From NCBI RefSeq assembly GCF_004010195.1, contig NC_057731.1:17946720-18010457 (forward strand): a stretch of DNA of 63,738 bases. Reading direction: 5' to 3'. Positions 3,930 through 58,857 of the stretch are shown piece after piece; position 1 is the first letter of the stretch, and every line of letters starts with the position of its first letter. The notes under the pieces are model-generated. The model ran no database searches. It saw only the letters and a program-made list of their open reading frames with translations, and was not told where the DNA came from. A program made the position numbers and the translations under genes. The DNA is from Chiloscyllium plagiosum (taxonomy: Eukaryota).

Positions 3930-5440
3930 CCTCTTTTATCAGTCAAAAGGCTTTATTTTTTCTCCCGCTTCTGCTATTTGGAATAATTTGTTGTGGTTTT
4001 GCTTCAAAATCATCTGAGCTGAACCTGCAGATTTTCTCTGTTGTCTTTGACCCCTTTCCTTTAGTTATATTAGTTGTGTCCAGAAAGGCAATCCTTTTGA
4101 TTTTCTTGACTACAGCATCAAGGTTGCTTTGTTTCTCTGTCACATCGTTTATTTAACTATTCATCGGATAAATTGACCTGGTAGCAATAAATCTCGACTG
4201 GCATATTTGGGATTACTGGTCCAATTTTTTGACTAGCTTCTGCTGAAATGATTGGCTCTAGTTTTGTCTGGAATTCCAGATCATCAGTCTTGTAATTGTG
4301 TTGGGCTCGGAGACTAATTTGTCCTCTTGTGGTAAACTTCATTCCTTCACAGGGCCTCAGCTTCACCTTGCAGAGTTTCATTCTGGCTTGACATCTGGTG
4401 TAATTTTACACAGGTCTGTGAAGCTCATAATGTGTGGGACGCAACTTTGTCTCTCTGGCAATTCATTTCTTTTGTTCTACTATCCTCCAATGCAATTGTT
4501 ACAAACCAATTTTCTGACATCAAATTTGAAGTTGCTAACCTGCTTTAAGGTATATATTGAATTGTCCAAAATTGTTGTCTGACATTTCTATAATATCAAT
4601 ACTTGATTTGTCAGAATCTCTGGAGTAATCATCTTGATAGGCTTTACAGCTTTTGTTTACCTTCTTTGCAGTTCTGTGCAAAGTGATTTAGCTTCTTGCA
4701 GTTAAAATGCTGTTTTTCCTCATGTTGGACATTTGCTTTTGTTGAATGACCCTCACAAATAGCCACAACATATCTGTTAACCTTGATCTTTTATGCTGAC
4801 CTTTTCACAGATAATTCTTGTTGCTTTCCATATTTTTGTACTTGAAAGGTTTAGATTGCTTTTCAAGATTGTGAATAGATCTGCACTGCTTATCAATGTA
4901 GGGCACAGAATTGGACTGTTTTTACACATAATGGACAAGCTCATCTATTTTCATATATGTGTGTTAGCTGTTGATCACAAGCTCAGAGCTTTTGCATATG
5001 CTTATGTGTTCTTTGACAGCCCTACTCTCTTCTCTTAACAGCCATGCTGTTATTGCAGGATCACTTGGTCTAAAATAATTCTACCTTTAATACAATCACC
5101 TTTCAGGTGCCTGAATTCACAGGATTCTGTGAGCTATGTTAATGCAGTCACCTATCTATCAATCTGCTCTTTTTCGCCTTGCACTGTAAATTTGAACACA
5201 CATTTTTGTGCTATATTCAATTCAGTTTCAAAACTTGCCTTCAAGGCTTTTGAAATTTCTGCGCCGAGCTCTTGTGGTTCTTTCTTAACCTCGTGCTGCA
5301 TGGTTTTGCAACCTCTGGCTGTTCTGATCTCCAGTCTGTCCGTCAATACAGATGATCAGTTTTTTCAGGCTAACGAAATAACGCTGCCCACCACAATGAG
5401 AGTTTGCAAAATTCTAATGCAGTGTAAGCATATGTGTCAC
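3930..5440 (-). mobile_element. Degenerate Ty3/Gypsy LTR retrotransposon gag-protease relic
   Basis: Reading the minus strand through stops gives FKFTVQGEKEQIDR*VTALT*LTESCEF..LK.DCIKGRII (Gypsy gag core), then NCKKLNHFAQNCK (zinc knuckle, ~4660-4700) and a degenerate protease segment. Confidence 0.75.
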
Positions 5441-6045: not shown

Positions 6046-6163
6046 CTCCACTTACCAGCGTTCACCCCGTAGCCCTTAATTCCTCTAGACAACAAGAATC
6101 TATCCTCCACTTACCAGCGTTCACCCCGTAGCCCTTAATTCCTCTAGACAACAAGAATCTATC
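6046..6163. repeat. 59-bp identical tandem duplication at the CR1 ORF2 C-terminus
   Basis: ctccacttaccagcgttcacc...caagaatctatc occurs at 6046-6104 and 6105-6163. Confidence 0.95.
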
Positions 6164-6607
6164 ATTCTTGGCCTTGAAGACATTTAGTGTCCCGGCTTCC
6201 ACTGCACTCCGTGGCAATGAATTCCACAGGCCCACCACTCTCTGGCTGAAGAAATGTCTCCGCATTTCTGTTCTGAAATGACCCCCTCTAATTCTAAGGC
6301 TGTGTCCACGGGTCCTAGTCTCCTCGTCTAACGGAAACAATTTCCTAGCATCCACCTTTTCCAAGCCATGTATTATTTTGTACGTCTCTATTAAGTCTCC
6401 CCTTAATCTTCTAAACTCCAACGAATACAATCCCAGTATCCTCAGCCGTTCCTCATATGTTAGACCTGTCATTCCAGGGATCATCCGTGTGAATCTCCGC
6501 TGGACACGTTCCAGTGCCAGTATGTCCTTCCTGAGGTGTGGGGACCAAAACTGGACACAGTACTCCAAATGGGGCCTAACCAGAGCTTTATAAAGTCTTA
6601 GTAGTAC

Positions 6608-6913
6608 ATCTCTGCTTTTATATTCCAACCCTCTTGAGATAAGAGACAACATTGCATTCGCTTTCTTAATCACAGACTCAACCTGCATGTTTACCTTTAG
6701 AGAATCCTCGACTAGCACTCCCAGATCCCTCTGTACTTTGGCTTTATGAATTTTCTCACCATCTCTGTTTTTATATTCCAACCCTCTTGAGATAAGAGAC
6801 AACATTGCATTCGCTTTCTTAATCACGGGCTCAACCTGCATGTTTACCTTTAGAGAATCCTGGACTAGCACTCCCAGATCCCTTTGTGCTTTGGCTTTAT
6901 TAATTTTCTCACC
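6608..6913. repeat. 153-bp in-frame tandem duplication inside CR1 ORF2
   Basis: 6608-6760 and 6761-6913 are direct copies with 7 differences. Confidence 0.95.
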
Positions 6914-9249
6914 ATTTAGAAAGTAGTCTATGTTTTTATTCTTTTTGCCAAAGTGCAAGACCTCGCACTTGCTCATGTTAAATTCCATCAGCCATTTCCT
7001 GGACCACTCTCCCCACCTGTCTAGATCCTTCTGTAGCCTCCCCACTTCCTCAGTACTACCTGCCTGTGCACCTAACTTCGTATCATCGGCAAACTTTGCT
7101 AGAATTCCCCCGGTTCCCTCATCCAAATCATTAATATATATTGCGAACAGCTGTGGCCCCAGCACCGAACCCTGCGGGGCACCGCTCGTCACCGGCTGCC
7201 ATTCTGATAAAGGACCTTTTATCCCACCTCTCTGCCTTCTGTTAGACAGCCAATCCTCAGTCCATCCCAGCAGCTCACCTCGAACACCATGGGCCCTCAC
7301 CTTGCTCAGCAGCCTCCCGTGTGGCACCTTATCAAAGGCCTTTTGAAAGTCTAGATAGACCCCATCCACTGGGTTTCCCTGGTCTAACCTACTTGTTACC
7401 TCTTCAAAAAATTCCAACAGGTTTGTCAGGCATGACCTCCCTTTACTAAATCCATGTTGACTTGTTCTAATCAGACTCTGCTCTTCCAAGAATTTAGAAA
7501 CCTCATCCTTAATGATAGATTCTAGTATTTTACAAGCAACCGAGGTTAAGCTGATTGGCCTATAATTTTCCATCTTTTGCCTTGATCCTTTCTTGAACAA
7601 GGGGGTTACAACAGCCATCTTCCAATTATCCGGGACCTTTCCTGACTCCAGTGACTCTTGAAAGATCTCAACCAATGCCTCTGCTATTTCCTCAGCCACC
7701 TCTCTCAGAAGTCTAGGGTGTATCCCATCGGGGCCAGGAGATTTATCAATTTTAAGACTTTTTAACTTTTCTAGCACTATCTCTTTCGTAATGGCAACCA
7801 TATTCAACTCAGCCCCGTGACACCCTTTAATTTTTGGGATATTACTCATGTCTTCCACTGTGAAAACTTATGCAAAGTACTTGTTAAGTTCTCCTGCTAT
7901 TTCCTTATCTCCCATCACTCGGCTTCCTGCATCAGTTTGAAGTGGCCCAATGTCTACTTTTGCCTGTCGTTTGTTTCTTATGTACTGAAAGAAACTTTTA
8001 CTATTATTTCTAATATTACTGGCTAGCCTACCTTCATATTTGATCCTCTCCTTTCTTATTACACTCTTTGTTATCCTCTGTTTGCTTTTGTATCCTTCCC
8101 AATCTTCTGATTTCCCACTGTTCTTTGCCACTTTATAGGATCTCTCTTTTTCTTTAATACATTTCCTGACTTCCTTTGTCAGCCAAGGTTGTCTAATCCC
8201 TTCCCGGTTAATCTTTCTTTTCTTGGGAATGAATCTCTGTACAGTGTCCTCAATTATACCTATAAACTCCTGCCATTTTTGCTCTACTGTCTTCCCGGTT
8301 AGCCTCTGCTTCCAGTCTATTTTAGTCAGTTCCTCTCTCATGCTCTCATAATTACCTTTATTCAACTGTAACACCATTACATCCGATTTTGCCTTCTCCC
8401 TTTCAAACTGCAGACTGAACTCTATCATATTATGGTCGCTACTTCCTAAGGGTTCCCTTACTTTTAAGATCTTTTATAGAGTCTGGTTCATTGCAAAGCA
8501 CTAGGTCCAGAATAGCCTGCTCTCTTGTGGGCTCCATGACAAGCTGTTCCAAAAAGCCATCCTGTAAGCATTCCATGAATTCCCTTTCTTTAGATCCACT
8601 AGCAACATTATTTACCCAGTCCACCTACATATTGAAGTCTCCCATGATCAATGTAACCTTGCCTTTCTGATATGCCTTCTCTATTTCCCGGTACATGTTG
8701 CGTCCCTGGTCCTGACCACTGTTAGGAGGTCTATACGCAACTCCAATTATGTTTTATTTGCCTTTGTGGTTCCTCAATTCCACCCACACAGACTCCACAT
8801 CATCCGACGCTATGTCATTCAATACCATAGATTTAATTTTGTTCTTAACTAACAAGGCAACCCCACCCCCTCTGCCCACCTCTCTGTCTTTTCGATAAGT
8901 TGAAAAACCATGGAGGTTTAACTGCCAGTCCTGACCCCCCTGTAACCAAGTCTCTGTGATGCCTACTACATCATAATCATTCACTATTATCTGTGCCATT
9001 AGTTCATCGGCTTTGTTATGAATGCTACGAGCATTCAGGTAAAGTGCCTTAATGCTAACTTCCTTATCATTATTTGTTTGTTTCCCTATGCATTCTAGTC
9101 TGCTTGAGGATGTCTTCTCCTATGATGATGTAAAATAAAACTACACAGAGTCTAAAACTTAAGGGTTGATGTTTTTGACTTTAACTATGGCTTAACTTTC
9201 CAGTTGCAGCCACACACTAAAGTGCTTAACAAAACTTTTCCCTCTTTAG

Positions 9250-15769: not shown

Positions 15770-16317
15770 ATGATTTGGAGATGCCGGTTTTGGACTGGGT
15801 TAAAAAAATCACACAACACCAGGTTATAGTCCAACAGGTTTATTTGGAAGCACTAGCTTTCGATGCATTGCTCCTTCATCAGGTGGTTGTGGAGGATAAG
15901 ATTGTAAGACACAGAATTTATAGCAAAAGTTTATAGTGTGATGTAACTGAAATTATACATTGAAAAAAACCTGGATTGTTAGCTGAGTCTCTCATCTTTT
16001 AGAATGAGCATATGGGTTTCAGTTCTTTCTTATGTAAATTGCAGAATATTTAAAACTTACATTCTCAAGTGAATGTAACTTTTAAATGTTCTGCGATTTA
16101 CATATAAAAGAATCGAAACCAACATGCTCATTCTAAGAGATGAGAGGCTTAAGCAATTCAGGTGTTTTTCAATATATAATTGAAAACTTTTGCTATAAAT
16201 TCTGTGTCTTACAATCTTATCCTCCACAACCACCTGATGAAGGAGCAGCGCATCGAAAGCTAGTACTTCCAAATAAACCTGTTGGACTATAATCTGGAGC
16301 TGTGTGATTTTTAACTT
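15770..16317. mobile_element. Penelope-like family B foldback element (~260-bp inverted arms) inside Gypsy pol
   Basis: TSD agaa(t/c)tgaaacc at 15758-15769 and 16318-16329; arms invert around ttacattc-tcaagt-gaatgtaa (~16057-16078); each arm holds a hammerhead core. Confidence 0.85.
16231..16265 (+). ncRNA. Minimal hammerhead ribozyme motif (family B, stem II weakened)
   Basis: cac CTGATGA a ggagc agc gcatc GAA AGCT A gta; the mirror copy is on the minus strand at 15851-15885. Confidence 0.6.
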
Positions 16318-16592: not shown

Positions 16593-19500
16593 AGAGAGTC
16601 ATAGAGATATACGGCACAGAAACAGACTCTTTGGTCCAACTCTTCCATGCCGACTAGATATCCTAATCTAATCTAGTCCCATTTGCCAGCACTTGGCCCA
16701 TATCCCTCTAAACCCTTCATATTCATATACCCATCCAGATGCCTTTTAAATGTTGTAATTGTACCAGCCTCCACAACTTCCTCTGACAGCTCATTCCATA
16801 CACGCACCACCATCTGTGTGAAGAAGTTACCCCTTAGTTCCCTTTTATATCTTTCCCCTCTTACCCCCTAGACATCTGCCGTCTAGTTCTGGACTCCCCC
16901 ACCCCAGGGAAAAGAATTTGTCTATTTATCCTACCATACCCATCATGATTTTATAAACCTCTATAAGGTCACCCCTCAGCCTCCAACACTCCAGGGGAAA
17001 ACAGCCCCAGCCTGTTCAACCTCTCCCTATAGCACAAACCCTCCAACCTGGCAACATCCTTGTGACTCTTTTCTGAACTCCTTCAAATTTCACAACATCA
17101 TTCCAATAGGAAGAGACCAGAACTGCATGCAATATTCAAAAAGTGGCCTCACCAATGTCCTGTACAACCTCAACATGACCTCCCAATGCCTATACTCAAT
17201 GCTCTGATCAATAAAGGAAAGCATACCAAACGCCTTCTTCACTATTCAATCTACCTGTGACTCAACTTTCAAGGAGCTATGAACCTGCACTCCAAGGTCT
17301 CTTTGTTCAACAACACTCCCTAGGACCTTACCATTAAGTGTATAAGTCCTGCTCTGATTTGCTTTTCCAAAATGCAGCACTTTACATTATTCTAAATTAA
17401 TTTCCAGCTGCCACACCTCAGCCTATTGGCCCATTTAATCAAGATCCGTTGTATTCTGAGGTAGCCTTCTTCACTGTCCACTACACCTCCAATTTTGGTG
17501 TCATCTGCAGACTTACTAATGAAACCTCCTATGCTCACATCCAAATTATTTATATAAATGATGAAAAGCAGTGGATCCAGCACCAATCTAGTTTGTGAGA
17601 CATGATTTCCCATGCACAAAGCCACGCTGGCTATCCCTAATCAATTCTTGCCTTTCCAAATTCATGTAAATCCTGTCTTTCAGGATTCCCTCCAAAAACC
17701 TGCCCACCACCGACATCAGGCTCACTGGTCTATAGTTCCCTGGCTTGTCCTTACCACCTTCCTTAAATAGTGGCACCATGTTAGCCAATCTCCAGTCTTC
17801 CGGCACCTCACCTGTGACTATCAATGATACAAATATTTCAGAGAGGGGCCCAGTAATCACTTCCCTACCATCCCACAGAGTTCTAGGGTACACCTGATCA
17901 GGTCCTCGGGATTTATCCGCTTTTATGCATTTCAAGATATCCAGCATCTCCTCCAATGTAATATGGGCATTTTTAAAGATGTCACCATCTATTTCCCCAC
18001 ATTCTATATCTTCCATGTCCTTCTCCACAATAAACAATGATGTAAACTCCTTGTTTAGTATCTCCGCCATCTCCTACGGCTGCACACATAGGCTGCCTTC
18101 CTGATCTTTGAGGTGTTCTATTCTCTCCCTAGTTACCCTTTTATCCTTAATGTATGTATAAAATCCCTTTGGATTCTCCTTAACCCTATTTGCCAAAGCT
18201 ATCTCATTTCCCCTTTTGCCCTCCTGATTTCCCTCTTAAGTATACTCCGACTGCCTTTATACTCTTCTAAGGATTCACTCGATCTATCGTGTCCATACCT
18301 GACATATGCTTCCTTCTTTTTCTCAACCAAAACCTCAATTTCTCTAGTCATCCAGCATTCCCTAAAACTACCAGCCTTTCCTTTCAGTCTAACAGGAATA
18401 TACTGTCTCCGGACTCTCATTATCTCATTTCTGAAGGCTTCCCATTTTCCAGCCATCCCTTTACCTGAGAATGTCTGACCCAAGTCAGCGTTTGAAAGTT
18501 ATTGCATAATACCATCAAAATTACCATCCTCCAATTTAGAACTTCAACTTTTAGATCCGGTCTATCCTTTTCCATCACTATTTTAAAACTAATAGAATTA
18601 TGGTCGCTGGCCCAAAGTGCTTCCCCACTGAAACCTTAATCACCTGCCCTGTCTTATTTCCCAAGAGTAAGTCATGCTTTACACCTCTAGTCAGTACATG
18701 CACATACTGAATCAGACAATGTTCTTGTACACACTTAACAAATTCCTTGCCATCTAAACCCTTAACACTATGGTAGTTCCTGTCTATGTTTGGAAAGTTA
18801 AAATCCCCCACCATAACCACCTTATTATTCTTATAGATAACTGAGATCCCTTACAAATTTGTTTCTCAATTTCCCTCTGACTATTAGGAGGTCTATAATA
18901 CAGTCTAAGTAAGGTGATCATCCCTTTCTTATTTCTCAGTTCCACCCAAATTACTTCCCTGGATGTATTTCCGGGAATATCCTCCCTCAGTAAAGCTGTA
19001 ACGTCCTTCCCATAGCATTTGTATCCTGGAACATTATGCTGCCAGTCATAGAGATGTACAGCATGGAAACAGACCCTTCGGTCCAACCTGTCCATGCCGC
19101 CCAGATATCCCAACCTAATCTAGTCCCACCTGCCAGGACCTGGCCCATATCCATCCTGTCCATCTCTGAACCACATTTCTGGAATTGCTATGATATTCCA
19201 GTCCCATATTCCTAACCATGCCCTGATTTCATCTGCCTTCCCTGTTAGACCTCGTGCATTGAAATAAATGGCAGTTTAAATTATCAGTCCTACCTTGTTC
19301 TCTGCTTTATCCCTGCCTACCCTGACTGTTTGATTGGCTCCTTTTTCCAACCGTACCAGTCTCAGATTGATCTCTCTCCTCACTATCACCCTGGGTCCCA
19401 ACCCCTCCACTTTACTAGTTTAAATCCTCCCGAGCAGCTCTAGCAAATTTCCCTGCCAGTATAATCGACCCCTTCCAATTCCGGTGCAATTCCTCCTTCT

Positions 19501-48437: not shown

Positions 48438-48584
48438 CATGATGTCGAGGTGCCGGTATTGGACTGGGGTTATTTGAAATCACGAACTGAAGTCACTTCA
48501 CCTGATGAAGGAGAAGCGCTCCAAAAGCTTGTGATTTCAAATAAACCTGTTAAGACTATAATCTAATGCTGTGTGACTTCTGAC
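48438..48584 (+). mobile_element. Penelope-like family B element with inverted 5' end and mutated hammerhead
   Basis: cacctgatgaaggagaagcgctccAaaagcttgtg at 48499-48533, preceded by the inverted family B end catgatgtcgaggtgccggtattggactgggg. Confidence 0.75.
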
Positions 48585-52630: not shown

Positions 52631-53305
52631 TGCTCTTACTAGGTGCAAGAAATTAAACAAGCGATACATGCTGTGATGTGAATGTGTACAGGGGTTTAAG
52701 ATAAGCCCACACTTTACTTTGGCTGTTGAAGAGAAATCATAGTGGTGACCAATGTTACCTACAGCAACAATGTACACTTATACTCTGGTTATAGCTCAAA
52801 ACCATTTTTGAAGGATATTTTTGAGGCTTCAAACGTAATCCAATGCTATGGTAAATATGAGTTCTTTTCCCCCAAGTTTAAACTTTGGAATAATAGAGCC
52901 AATTCTTTCTATGTTATGCTCCAAATATAGCCTTGCATAAAATTGGACAGGTCTCCAAATAACTGTACTGTGTGATTCTTTAGTGTGTGTGCTTGGAAGA
53001 GACATTGCAATTCAAATTGAAGTTAGATGGATGTTGAATGGTGTCATCTGTTCTACTCAAATAGTTCTTCAGACGAACATCTCCTACTGCTTGTTGGTCT
53101 GTTGTATTTAAATTATGTTTGATCAGGAAATTTAGTCAATAATTTAACCTATCAGGTTCCTCATGTATAATGAGTTTTAGCAGCACTGATTGTGTTTTTG
53201 CAATTAATTAACTAGGCTATTGTACCAGTGGTGCAATGTGAGCGCAGATTGCGACATTAAAAATCATACAACACCAGATTATAGTGCAACAGGTTTATTT
53301 ATAAG

Positions 53306-53340
53306 CACTAGCTTTCGGAGCGCTGCTCCTTCATCAGGTG
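53306..53340 (-). ncRNA. Minimal hammerhead ribozyme (family B, intact)
   Basis: rc = CAC CUGAUGA A GGAGC AGC GCUCC GAA AGCU A GUG: stem I CAC/GUG, stem II 5 bp, palindromic AGCU in place of stem III, CUA cleavage triplet. Confidence 0.78.
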
Positions 53341-53349
53341 GTTGTCAAT

Positions 53350-53384
53350 CACCTGATGAAGGAGCAGCACTCCGAAAGCTAGTG
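53350..53384 (+). ncRNA. Minimal hammerhead ribozyme (family B, core intact)
   Basis: CAC CUGAUGA A GGAG CAGCA CUCC GAA AGCU A GUG. Confidence 0.75.
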
Positions 53385-54834
53385 CTTCCAAATAAACCTG
53401 TTGGACTATAATCTGGTGTTGTGTGATTTTTAACCTTGTGCACTCCAATCCAATATCGGCACCTCCAAATGCAGATTACGACATAAGTGGGTGTAATGGT
53501 GTGGAATTCTCAGTTTTCAGGAGCCAGGATAAAGTGAACTTTGATTTCAAACTCAGTCATTATAGTGTTAACAAACCAGAAGTTACTTGAGCTTCTTTAA
53601 TCTCTTTTTTTTCAGAGATAGAGTTTGCAGTTTCAGTTTGTTCAAGTGCAGTAATTGGTAATTGTTTTGTACTTGTGACTAACACTTAGATTTTATGTGA
53701 CCAAGAAATGTTTTGAACCTGTCCAACTTAACATTTAAGGTCTGAATCATACAATTTCAACTTTGACCAGTTTAGTCTTTGAAATTGATAAAACCTATCC
53801 TGAACATAAGAATTGTCATTACCATAGCTTTGTTGTGCCTGGGTTTTAAAAGAAGTAGAGGGAAAATATAGGAGATGCCCTAACTATAAGTTCCCAAATT
53901 TATCTTGATTTATGAATCTCGCTTCTGGATTTTAAAAAATGGAGCATGTTACTCTGTTATTGAAGAAAACAAAAACCCAGAGTTTATAGGCCAGATAGCT
54001 TGGCATCTGCCAGAGTGAAATTACAAAGATCTATAATTACAGATTGACTGACTGAACGTAATGAAAAGTTTGGAGAGCCAGCATGGATTTGAAAAAGATA
54101 GTTCACGCCTGATGAACCTGATTGAATCTTTTGGAGATGTGTAACATTTTTGGATTGCTTAATTCTATAATTATATATAGAAGAGCATGCACAGATACTT
54201 TATAAATAGATTTCCAGATCACTTAATATCCTTCATAAGGAACTGTTGGCTGTAGTTAAAATGTGTGGAAAAATATTGACCAGGTTAAGAATAAGTTCCT
54301 GGATTATCTGAAGGGACAGAAATTGTGTCAAAGGTTCATTATATATTAATTAACTGGAATGGAAAAGAAGAAACAGAATTGAGTGACAAACAAAACAATG
54401 ATACATTCAAGCTTTTAGGTTACTTCATTTCTCAATTCAATAAAGCAAGACAGTATCTTGCCCGAGGTCTGTGAATAGAAGTTCTGGTCTGATATTGAAA
54501 TTCAGAAATAGAGTCAATATTGCATCTGGGTCAATGTTTAAATGAGTGCATTTGCAACAGCATTGATTTTTTAACCTTTCTTGGTGAGCATATTTCCTGA
54601 CAAATTATTTTGCAATGTAGTTTTTGGTGTTATATGAAACAATTCGGTGTTGTTATTTGGATCTAAAAGGGTTAATAGTGAAGCATCGGGATGATGTCAA
54701 ATGTTCTTTGGGGTCGAACATCTGGGATCTCTGAGGAGTGGGATCTAACATCTGGCCCTCATCAAAATCTCTGACCATTTGTATTAAATCAATGTAACCT
54801 GTAACAATTTCCTAACATACAAAAACTATATCAC

Positions 54835-57369: not shown

Positions 57370-58335
57370 ACTGAACAGCACAGAAACATCTCCTTTGGCC
57401 CACCAAGACTAAACTAACAGATGATGTCTTTCTAAATCCGCTTTTGCCTCTATATAGTCTGATTCCCTCTATTCCCTGTGTATTCATGTATCTGTCAAGA
57501 TGCTTCTTAAACATTGTTGTTGCCTCCACTTCCATTACCGTTTCTGGCAGGGCATTCCAGGCACTTATCACTCTCTGTATAAAAAACCTTGTCTCACACA
57601 TCGCCTTTAAACTTATATCTTTTTACTTTAAACCTATGTTTCCAAGTAATTGACATTTCTACGCTGGAAAGAAGACTCCACTATCCATTCTATCCAAGCC
57701 TCTCATAATTCTGTAAACTTGCTTCCGGTCGACCCTCCACTCTATCCTTCGACATTCACGTGAAAACAATCCAAGTTTGTCCAATTTCTACTCATAGACA
57801 ACACCCTCCAAACCAAGCAGCATCTGCACCCTTTCCAAGTCCTCCACATCCTTCTGGTATTGTGACAATCAGAACTAGCTGCAATACTCCAAGTGTGGCC
57901 TAACTAAAGTTCTATACAGCTGCACATGACTTGCCTATTTTTGCACTCTGTGCCCTGACAGATGCTATATATCTTCTTGACCGCCTTATCCACTCGTGTT
58001 GCCACTTTCAGAGAACTGTAAACCTGTGCCCTTGTACTCCACTGTATGTTGATGTTACTAAGAGTACTGCCATCTACTGTATACTTCCACCCTGCATTAG
58101 ATCTTCCACAATGCATCACTTTGCATTTGTTGGAATCAAACTCCATTTGCCATTTTCCTGCCCAACCCTCCAGTTTATCTGTATCCTGTTGCATCCTTTG
58201 GCAATCCTCCTCACTAGATGCAGCTCCTCCAATCTTTATGCCATCCACAAACTTACTAATCAGATCACCTACATTCTCCTCCAAATCATTTAAAGATATC
58301 AAAAACACCAGAGCTGCTAGCACTGATGCCTGGAC
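57370..58335 (-). mobile_element. CR1 LINE 3' fragment
   Basis: ISKFVDGIKIGG, WQMEFDSNKCKVMH, FFIQRVISAWNALP. Confidence 0.85.
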
Positions 58336-58857
58336 TAGAGTGAGGCTTAGACCCCACCCAGTTTCTGGCATAGCAATTTGATTGAATGAACATGCAGCGA
58401 GCTTGCTGGCACATACTGTTAGTGTTAGTTTGAAGTCGTGGTATACTGTATATCAGACAGATTCCTGCTGACAAACACAACAAGCATCCTGTCTGTGTGT
58501 CTGTGCAAAAAAACATGTCACTATGACAGCACTTTATAACCTTTAGTCTCTGGCTAAAACATCCATGCTATAACAGCATAGCAAGGCATGGATGCTGTGA
58601 ACATGCAGGTAGGTGCTAAGTGAGCGAGTGCTAAGAGAGCAAATGAGCAGCCCTGATATAAAACCTGGTCCAATCCTTGAGCTGGATGCTTGCCCCTCAG
58701 TGCAAAGTGTTTTCATAGCAGCCTTGTCAGCACTGGTTGTCAGTACGTCCTGCCTGCAATTCAAGTCTATACTTCACGAACATCTTGCAGATGCATTTGG
58801 GAGGCGCTATGAGGATTCTGAGGGGTTGACAGGTTGTGCTGAGTAATGTGGAGGATG

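Follow-up and report, generated by a model that had tools for sequence, protein, structure and literature searches.

Structure of the insertion

A palindrome at 53244-53484 of the DNA analyzed here (the window, a 63,738-nt stretch of Chiloscyllium plagiosum contig NC_057731.1) carries a hammerhead motif on each strand. The locus raises the question of whether such a hairpin spreads as a unit in its own right or is left by the integration of a longer retroelement.

Two inverted arms of 88 nt (53257-53344 and 53346-53433) were complementary at 82 of 88 positions (93%, 6 mismatches), with 1 nt between them. Thus, the near-spacerless arms of about 87 bp noted in an earlier sequence-only reading are real. 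Within the surrounding 3 kb, the longest inverted repeat after this hairpin was 20 nt. The same reading described a 14-bp TSD and a unique tail of about 40 bp. The direct repeat is present, but its copies match at 13 of 14 positions, and the length is given as 13-14 bp because T53257 belongs to both the TSD and the element end. The tail measures 37 bp and is unique inside the palindromic copy, but it is the family's standard tail. The segment 53244-53484 is a single old insertion, in which two 5′-truncated pLTR ends of an EN+ Penelope-like retrotransposon (PLE) are placed head to head.

The features are listed below, with positions in the pLTR numbered from hammerhead C3 (= 0).

53244-53257: left TSD copy (13 of 14 matching), its last T shared with the element end
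53257-53345, minus strand: tail-less inverted pLTR arm, from the inner start site (family end GATTTTTAAC) to -8, the putative RNA +1
53294-53299, minus strand: AATAAA hexamer of the left arm
53306-53340, minus strand: minimal type I hammerhead (motif type of PMC4209133); C3 at 53337, cleavage base A at 53309, stem II of 5 bp
53345-53346: head-to-head junction, -8 joined to -7; C53346 would be the base shared with a cap-derived C
53346-53433, plus strand: pLTR arm in direct orientation, between -7 and the inner start site; with the tail, 91% identical to the 5′ pLTR of copy L188
53350-53384, plus strand: minimal type I hammerhead; C3 at 53353, cleavage base A at 53381, stem II of 4 bp via A53369
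53391-53411, plus strand: AATAAA (53391-53396) and poly(A) positions 53408 and 53411 from family-wide reads, followed by a GU/U-rich tract (53414-53431)
53434-53470, plus strand: PLE tail, 37 bp; in the parent, the tail end is the ATG of the RT-GIY-YIG ORF
53471-53484: right TSD copy
15771-16315, minus strand: second insertion of the same family, with the same outer ends and tail, arms of about 250 bp, a different inversion point and its own 12-bp TSD (11/12)

In a second organism, whose flanks are about 4% different, DNA contigs run into the element from both sides. Since these contigs enter the element from either flank, the hairpin insertion is probably older than the split from that organism.

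Parent element and family size

A 37-letter stretch across the arm end and the tail start had 14,688 exact matches in the genome. In 20 arbitrary 10-kb stretches (183,847 called bases), 9 related arm matches were found, in 6 of the stretches; the density is about 1 insertion per 30 kb, sister families counted in. Copies that extend beyond the tail gave 88 exact matches and lead into an ORF, the ATG of which forms the tail end. The near-full-length copy L188 consists of an inverted pLTR, a pLTR, the ORF in broken frames, a 3′ UTR and a second pLTR, and its ORF contains RT, a C-x4-C-x2-C linker and GIY-YIG. In L188, pLTRs thus flank the ORF and carry the hammerhead. The arm and tail of the window copy matched positions 868-992 of L188 (the 5′ pLTR) at the identity listed above and positions 3947-4067 at 84%.

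The motifs DKG, YTRYIDD and GIY-YIG were visible in L186, L188 and L147. Pfam gave RVT_1 in L186 (E=8.6e-5) and GIY-YIG in L147 (E=8e-4), with both scores below the curated cut-offs, so that the profile evidence is weak though consistent, and a PDB sequence search with the RT piece gave no match. The CX2-5CxxC linker between RT and EN is present in L188, and in L147 with one Cys replaced; Nematis likewise has a linker motif (PMC8557442). Judged by these motifs, the parent is an EN+ PLE with RT and, at the C terminus, GIY-YIG, and it may be called Neptune-type by the linker motif only. The window copy shows the marks of EN+ PLE insertions taken from PMC8557442, namely a 30-40 bp tail at one end, an adjacent inverted 5′-truncated copy and a TSD. 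The proposal, made from the sequence, that the palindrome derives from the 5′ ends of inverted PLE pLTRs is supported by the parent copy, its RT and GIY-YIG motifs and the pLTR identity.

Hammerhead motifs and predicted folding

Both hammerheads possess CUGAUGA, an extra A, a G-C pair closing stem II, GAAA, AGCU and the cleavage base A. The sequence features of the minimal type I motif (core, base after A9, G10.1-C11.1, palindromic 15.2-16.2) were found. Stem I is only 3 bp (CAC/GUG), and stem III is only the palindrome AGCU, i.e., of the dimer type. The suggestion that both cores are intact holds for the conserved cores at 53306-53340 and 53350-53384, but the plus-strand stem II is without its innermost pair (A53369) and stem I has those 3 bp. 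At the gathering threshold, Rfam had no match anywhere in the window. The nucleotide after A9, G10.1-C11.1 and the palindromic stem III region are shared with the minimal hammerheads of metazoan PLEs (PMC4209133). However, the helices, of 3 bp (helix I) and 4-5 bp (helix II), are shorter than those of the Schistosoma families (4-5 bp and 7-8 bp). In Schistosoma, hammerhead pairs on opposite strands lie 100-700 bp apart (PMC4209133), whereas the two cores of the window copy are only 16 nt apart.

The arm layout confirms that the transcript of each strand contains one ribozyme and its own antisense. Folding gave -144 (plus) and -141 (minus) kcal/mol for the full hairpin, compared with -8 and -11 for the isolated motifs, and the pair probability of stem II inside the folded hairpin was below 1e-16. 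With the arms joined 5′ end to 5′ end, transcription from either side produces the antisense arm before the ribozyme, so cleavage is predicted to be blocked in either of them. The anticipated competition between hairpin and cleavage was examined by this fold; the duplex is favored, and the outcome is predicted to be one-sided, not balanced. Inside the hairpin, a dimer-type hammerhead has no partner on the same strand. The ribozymes are predicted to be passengers, locked in an 88-bp duplex.

Ribozyme cleavage was ruled out as the cause of the junction, as the cleavage base is 36 nt downstream of it.

Diversity of the junctions

We analyzed 93 insertions of the family (98 anchors, recovered from 100 among the 3′-end matches listed). 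Inverted pairs with at most 30 nt between the arms accounted for 54 of them; 11 had a farther partner, and 28 had no partner within 1.5 kb. The proportion of short palindromes would be overestimated if long ones are under-assembled, as gaps in L112 and L186 suggest they may be. A TSD was present in 84 of 93 tailed hairpins, with a mode of 12-13 bp. Inverted pairs are the usual outcome of the family; the outer ends are fixed and the centers variable.

The sequence-only reading had suggested that the hairpin could be a propagating unit and that copies with the identical junction should be counted. Exact head-to-head core pairs within 30 nt numbered 1,705, and the geometry of the window copy was found in 90 of them (5%). 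It occurred in four arm variants (ACAAT, ACTAT, ACAAC and ACTAC) and in either orientation relative to the tail (of the tailed copies, 16 lay one way and 10 the other, with 5 more without a scored tail), and the arms were mismatched in 22 of the 90. Twenty-nine BLAST-ranked relatives all have the layout of the window copy, but these were chosen by similarity. L001-L030 were excluded from the discordance and orientation counts and included in the TSD count. The copies of a MITE, or of another hairpin unit of fixed structure, share a constant interior. Such an interior was not found: the 49 short pairs recovered from 50 among the matches listed had 41 different centers. Because the junction is rare, occurs in several variants and in either orientation and often has mismatched arms, there is little support for transposition of the hairpin as a unit, and the count speaks against the suggestion. 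The window hairpin is likely a dead-end by-product, not a self-spreading unit.

L194 and L195 (C1, 40.55 and 41.03 Mb) have one complex junction in common, with different TSDs and unrelated flanks. This junction has 2 copies genome-wide, separated by 474 kb, which lie in opposite orientation with respect to the tail. It is the only sign of hairpin copying that was found, and it may reflect copying or local conversion.

In four apparent monomers (L256, L289, L280 and L263), 10-25 nt of the tail end are present in inverted form, probably as a very short second cDNA. Some of the insertions without a partner may be twin-primed too. L091 and L161 are hairpins carrying the tail on both sides. In L156, L170, L171, L173, L179 and L185, part of a pLTR follows directly on the ORF 5′ end, at 60-100 nt past the ATG, which suggests further start or jump sites.

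Arm ends and the inferred RNA start

Among 147 arm ends, 55 were at -10 to -1 (5.5 per nt) and 6 at -20 to -11 (0.6 per nt); 26 were farther upstream, and the other 60 lay within the ribozyme or beyond it. These positions are blurred by 1-2 nt by microhomology. The majority of the arms intact across -12 to +12 (19,277 arms) continue upstream. Since most intact arms run on, the stop at -8 is one class and not a rule.

The parental base at -9 is C. Where another base was present, it was G in 3,013 cases and A or T in 1,325; this G share of 69% compares with 34-43% expected from the composition of the partner strand. At -8, non-parental bases totaled 2,930, and a hand count of 100 among the matches listed gave T 58, G 28 and C 14. 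The blunt -8/-8 joint occurred 0 times, against 90 for -8/-7 through C. In 40 sampled cases of G(-9), the G coincided with the base that comes next on the partner strand in 22, ended templated filler in 5 and was a C>G change of the parent in 2; only 11 were unexplained by element sequence. With 22 of 40 explained by the partner and 11 unexplained, the case for a cap is therefore made from a bias. The excess of G before -8 fits that expected from copying a cap, as with the cap-derived extra G at full-length L1 5′ junctions (PMC11702581), and terminal C addition by RT would look alike. On cDNAs reaching -8, such an additional C would either stay unpaired or serve as microhomology of 1 nt, which also agrees with the missing blunt joint.

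The context of -8, TCC-A-CA/CT, fits the BBCA+1BW initiator consensus (PMC5287114), and the Penelope of D. virilis has an internal promoter in its pLTR (PMC2377424). The RNA reads had no common start position; they come from a poly(A) single-cell library, in which such a start is not expected. Taken from the arm ends, capped element RNA probably starts at A(-8), and the junction would record the RNA start. The alternative of an intron boundary at this position, known from D. virilis, was rejected because -8 has no AG.

Number of templates for the two arms

Among the 90 pairs with the same geometry, 22, including the window copy, had arms that differed at -4 and/or -6 (hand count). The arms were discordant in 18 of 90 at -4 and in 5 of 90 at -6 (hand count), compared with 4.3% per ordinary site (non-CpG sites, 86 pairs; p=5e-8 for -4). 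A GT indel differed between the arms in 9 of 62 pairs, and 23 would be expected if the arms were independent. The AATAAA/ATTAAA variant was discordant in 0 of 69 pairs, the mean arm distance was 5.1 vs 6.3 for random pairs, and rare left-arm alleles were mirrored in the other arm in 14 of 139 cases. This similarity above random would be accounted for by a common source of the arms, by conversion, or by self-priming in some of the copies. From these variants, the arms appear to derive from co-active variants, often from one source, and a sizeable minority probably from different templates. Such a minority would not be expected from pure self-priming.

Origin of the hairpin

We consider it probable that the hairpin arose by joining, at the time of insertion, of two separately primed cDNAs, each run to the RNA 5′ end. 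A capped element RNA would begin at A(-8). The element protein would nick both target strands 12-13 bp apart and prime two cDNAs, the first at the tail end and the second at the inner site. Each would reach the RNA 5′ end after only about 90-130 nt, and a C would often be added there opposite the cap. The 3′ ends of the cDNAs would then be joined via 0-4 nt of microhomology, in the window copy through the cap-derived C. Poseidon_Ac (PAc) has two RT start sites bounding its tail in vitro, both target strands are cut and extended, and a dimer is predicted (PMC11167929); the two start sites match the two fixed outer ends of the family hairpins. PAc is of the Penelope/Poseidon clade with its ORF start inside the hammerhead, whereas the window family has its ATG after the tail and a Neptune-type linker. 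Hairpins, a cap G and pLTR-internal poly(A) are not dealt with in the sections of PMC11167929 covered here.

Head-to-head Penelope repeats of Adineta vaga were read as self-priming (PMC3846280), in which one template folds back and the second arm is copied from the first. Besides this published interpretation, the agreement of the arms in subfamily (hexamer and mean distance) and the mirrored rare alleles are in its favor. However, the arms of some same-junction pairs differ at variant sites, in the window copy too, and other pairs differ in the indel; loop-less centers (GGTGATCACC, GGTGATATCACC) recur; and self-priming alone leaves the stop of the second arm at a fixed inner site unexplained. 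We regard it as an unlikely explanation. The statistics favor two primers, and often two templates, over it. Copying of the unit, whereby a master hairpin would be transcribed and then reverse-transcribed through its center, would account for 90 occurrences of one geometry and for the junction common to L194 and L195. Against this, the 90 are 5% of the pairs and show four variants and both orientations, the other recurrent centers are short and fit microhomology joins, and the L194/L195 junction, flipped and with 2 copies only, also fits local conversion; unit copying is thus very improbable. Instead of marking the RNA 5′ end, ends near the hammerhead could also be due to stalled RT, to ribozyme cleavage or to the later loss of the center of longer palindromes. 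A minor cluster at +18 to +27, on the 3′ side of stem II (14/147), would agree with this, as would another set of 100 arm ends, of which about 11 fell on the cleavage site at +28/+29 (hand count; about 7 if uniform). Only 2 of the 147 unselected ends were at +28 to +30, however, and the main pile-up is 5′ of the ribozyme, past RT passage, with a sharp upstream edge and the G bias. This is the least probable of the explanations weighed.

RNA reads and polyadenylation

RNA reads were taken from one run (about 2% read, one sample); they are family-wide, with none on the unique flanks of the locus. A>G differences in these reads are no measure of editing, because many copies contribute to them. 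After positions equal to 53408 and 53411, 228 and 332 of 1,243 reads on the window continued as poly(A). The same positions of L121 (3693-3696) gave 369 and 461 of 3,374 reads. Poly(A) is added 12-15 nt past AATAAA (ATTAAA in the other variant), ahead of the GU-rich tract, and the DNA there is not A-rich. Both hexamer variants are canonical signals. Each hairpin holds the hexamer on both strands, predicted to be base-paired in the transcript.

These positions allow a tentative, LTR-like reading of the PLE layout, which we consider possible but doubtful. The pLTR would have a capped start at -8, a used poly(A) site at +55/+58 and, downstream of this site, both RT starts at about +81 and +120. 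Strong-stop cDNA would be made first, because in polyadenylated RNA the sites for priming would be confined to the region near the 5′ end. Hairpins would be cDNA pairs from two RNAs, and long copies would arise via strand transfer through the -8 to +55 redundancy or from read-through RNA. If so, the many thousands of hairpins in the genome would be a record of the strong-stop step. The order of start, poly(A) site and RT start sites makes this strong-stop/strand-transfer model directly testable.

Comparison with known systems

The head-to-head architecture is already published (PMC8557442), and the window copy is real but ordinary. Like the EN+ PLE insertions of PMC8557442, PMC3846280 and PMC2377424, it has a head-to-head pLTR, a 30-40 bp tail at one end, a TSD, a pLTR hammerhead and a pLTR/tail abutting the ORF start. 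Unlike the insertions described in the accessible parts of those papers, it has no ORF between the arms, and its family has a very high copy number, ends massed at one upstream edge, the G bias and evidence of two templates. The contribution of the present analysis is quantitative, namely the G bias, the absent blunt joint, the arm discordance and the pLTR-internal poly(A), which together suggest a strong-stop-like step. In the part of the literature searched, which did not include subscription journals or Repbase/Dfam, we found nothing on a cap G, pLTR poly(A) or strand transfer for PLEs. These counts across the family are relevant to how the inverted pLTRs and tails of PLEs originate.

L1 twin priming (PMC11702581) likewise uses a second primer from the other target end, keeps the TSD and shows microhomology at the joint and an extra 5′ G. 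However, L1 inverts adjacent parts of one RNA, whereas the arms of the window hairpin repeat one segment. Non-LTR retrozymes (bioRxiv 10.64898/2026.07.22.740005) are also non-coding and pLTR-related with a type I hammerhead. As described in the accessible text, they are head-to-tail tandems; in contrast, the window copy is one head-to-head pair with a TSD, and no tandem.

Other elements in the window

The window is rich in repeats and contains 1,142 N. In a check for a host gene, 26 of its 85 open frames with a length of at least 90 aa were scanned and gave LINE-type RT/endonuclease pieces only. Remnants of this type lie at 6062-9119, 17588-18073 and 57904-58452, all on the minus strand. At 48498-48579 (plus strand) there is a decayed single hammerhead-bearing end of a sister family, in which stem I and the 3′ end differ.
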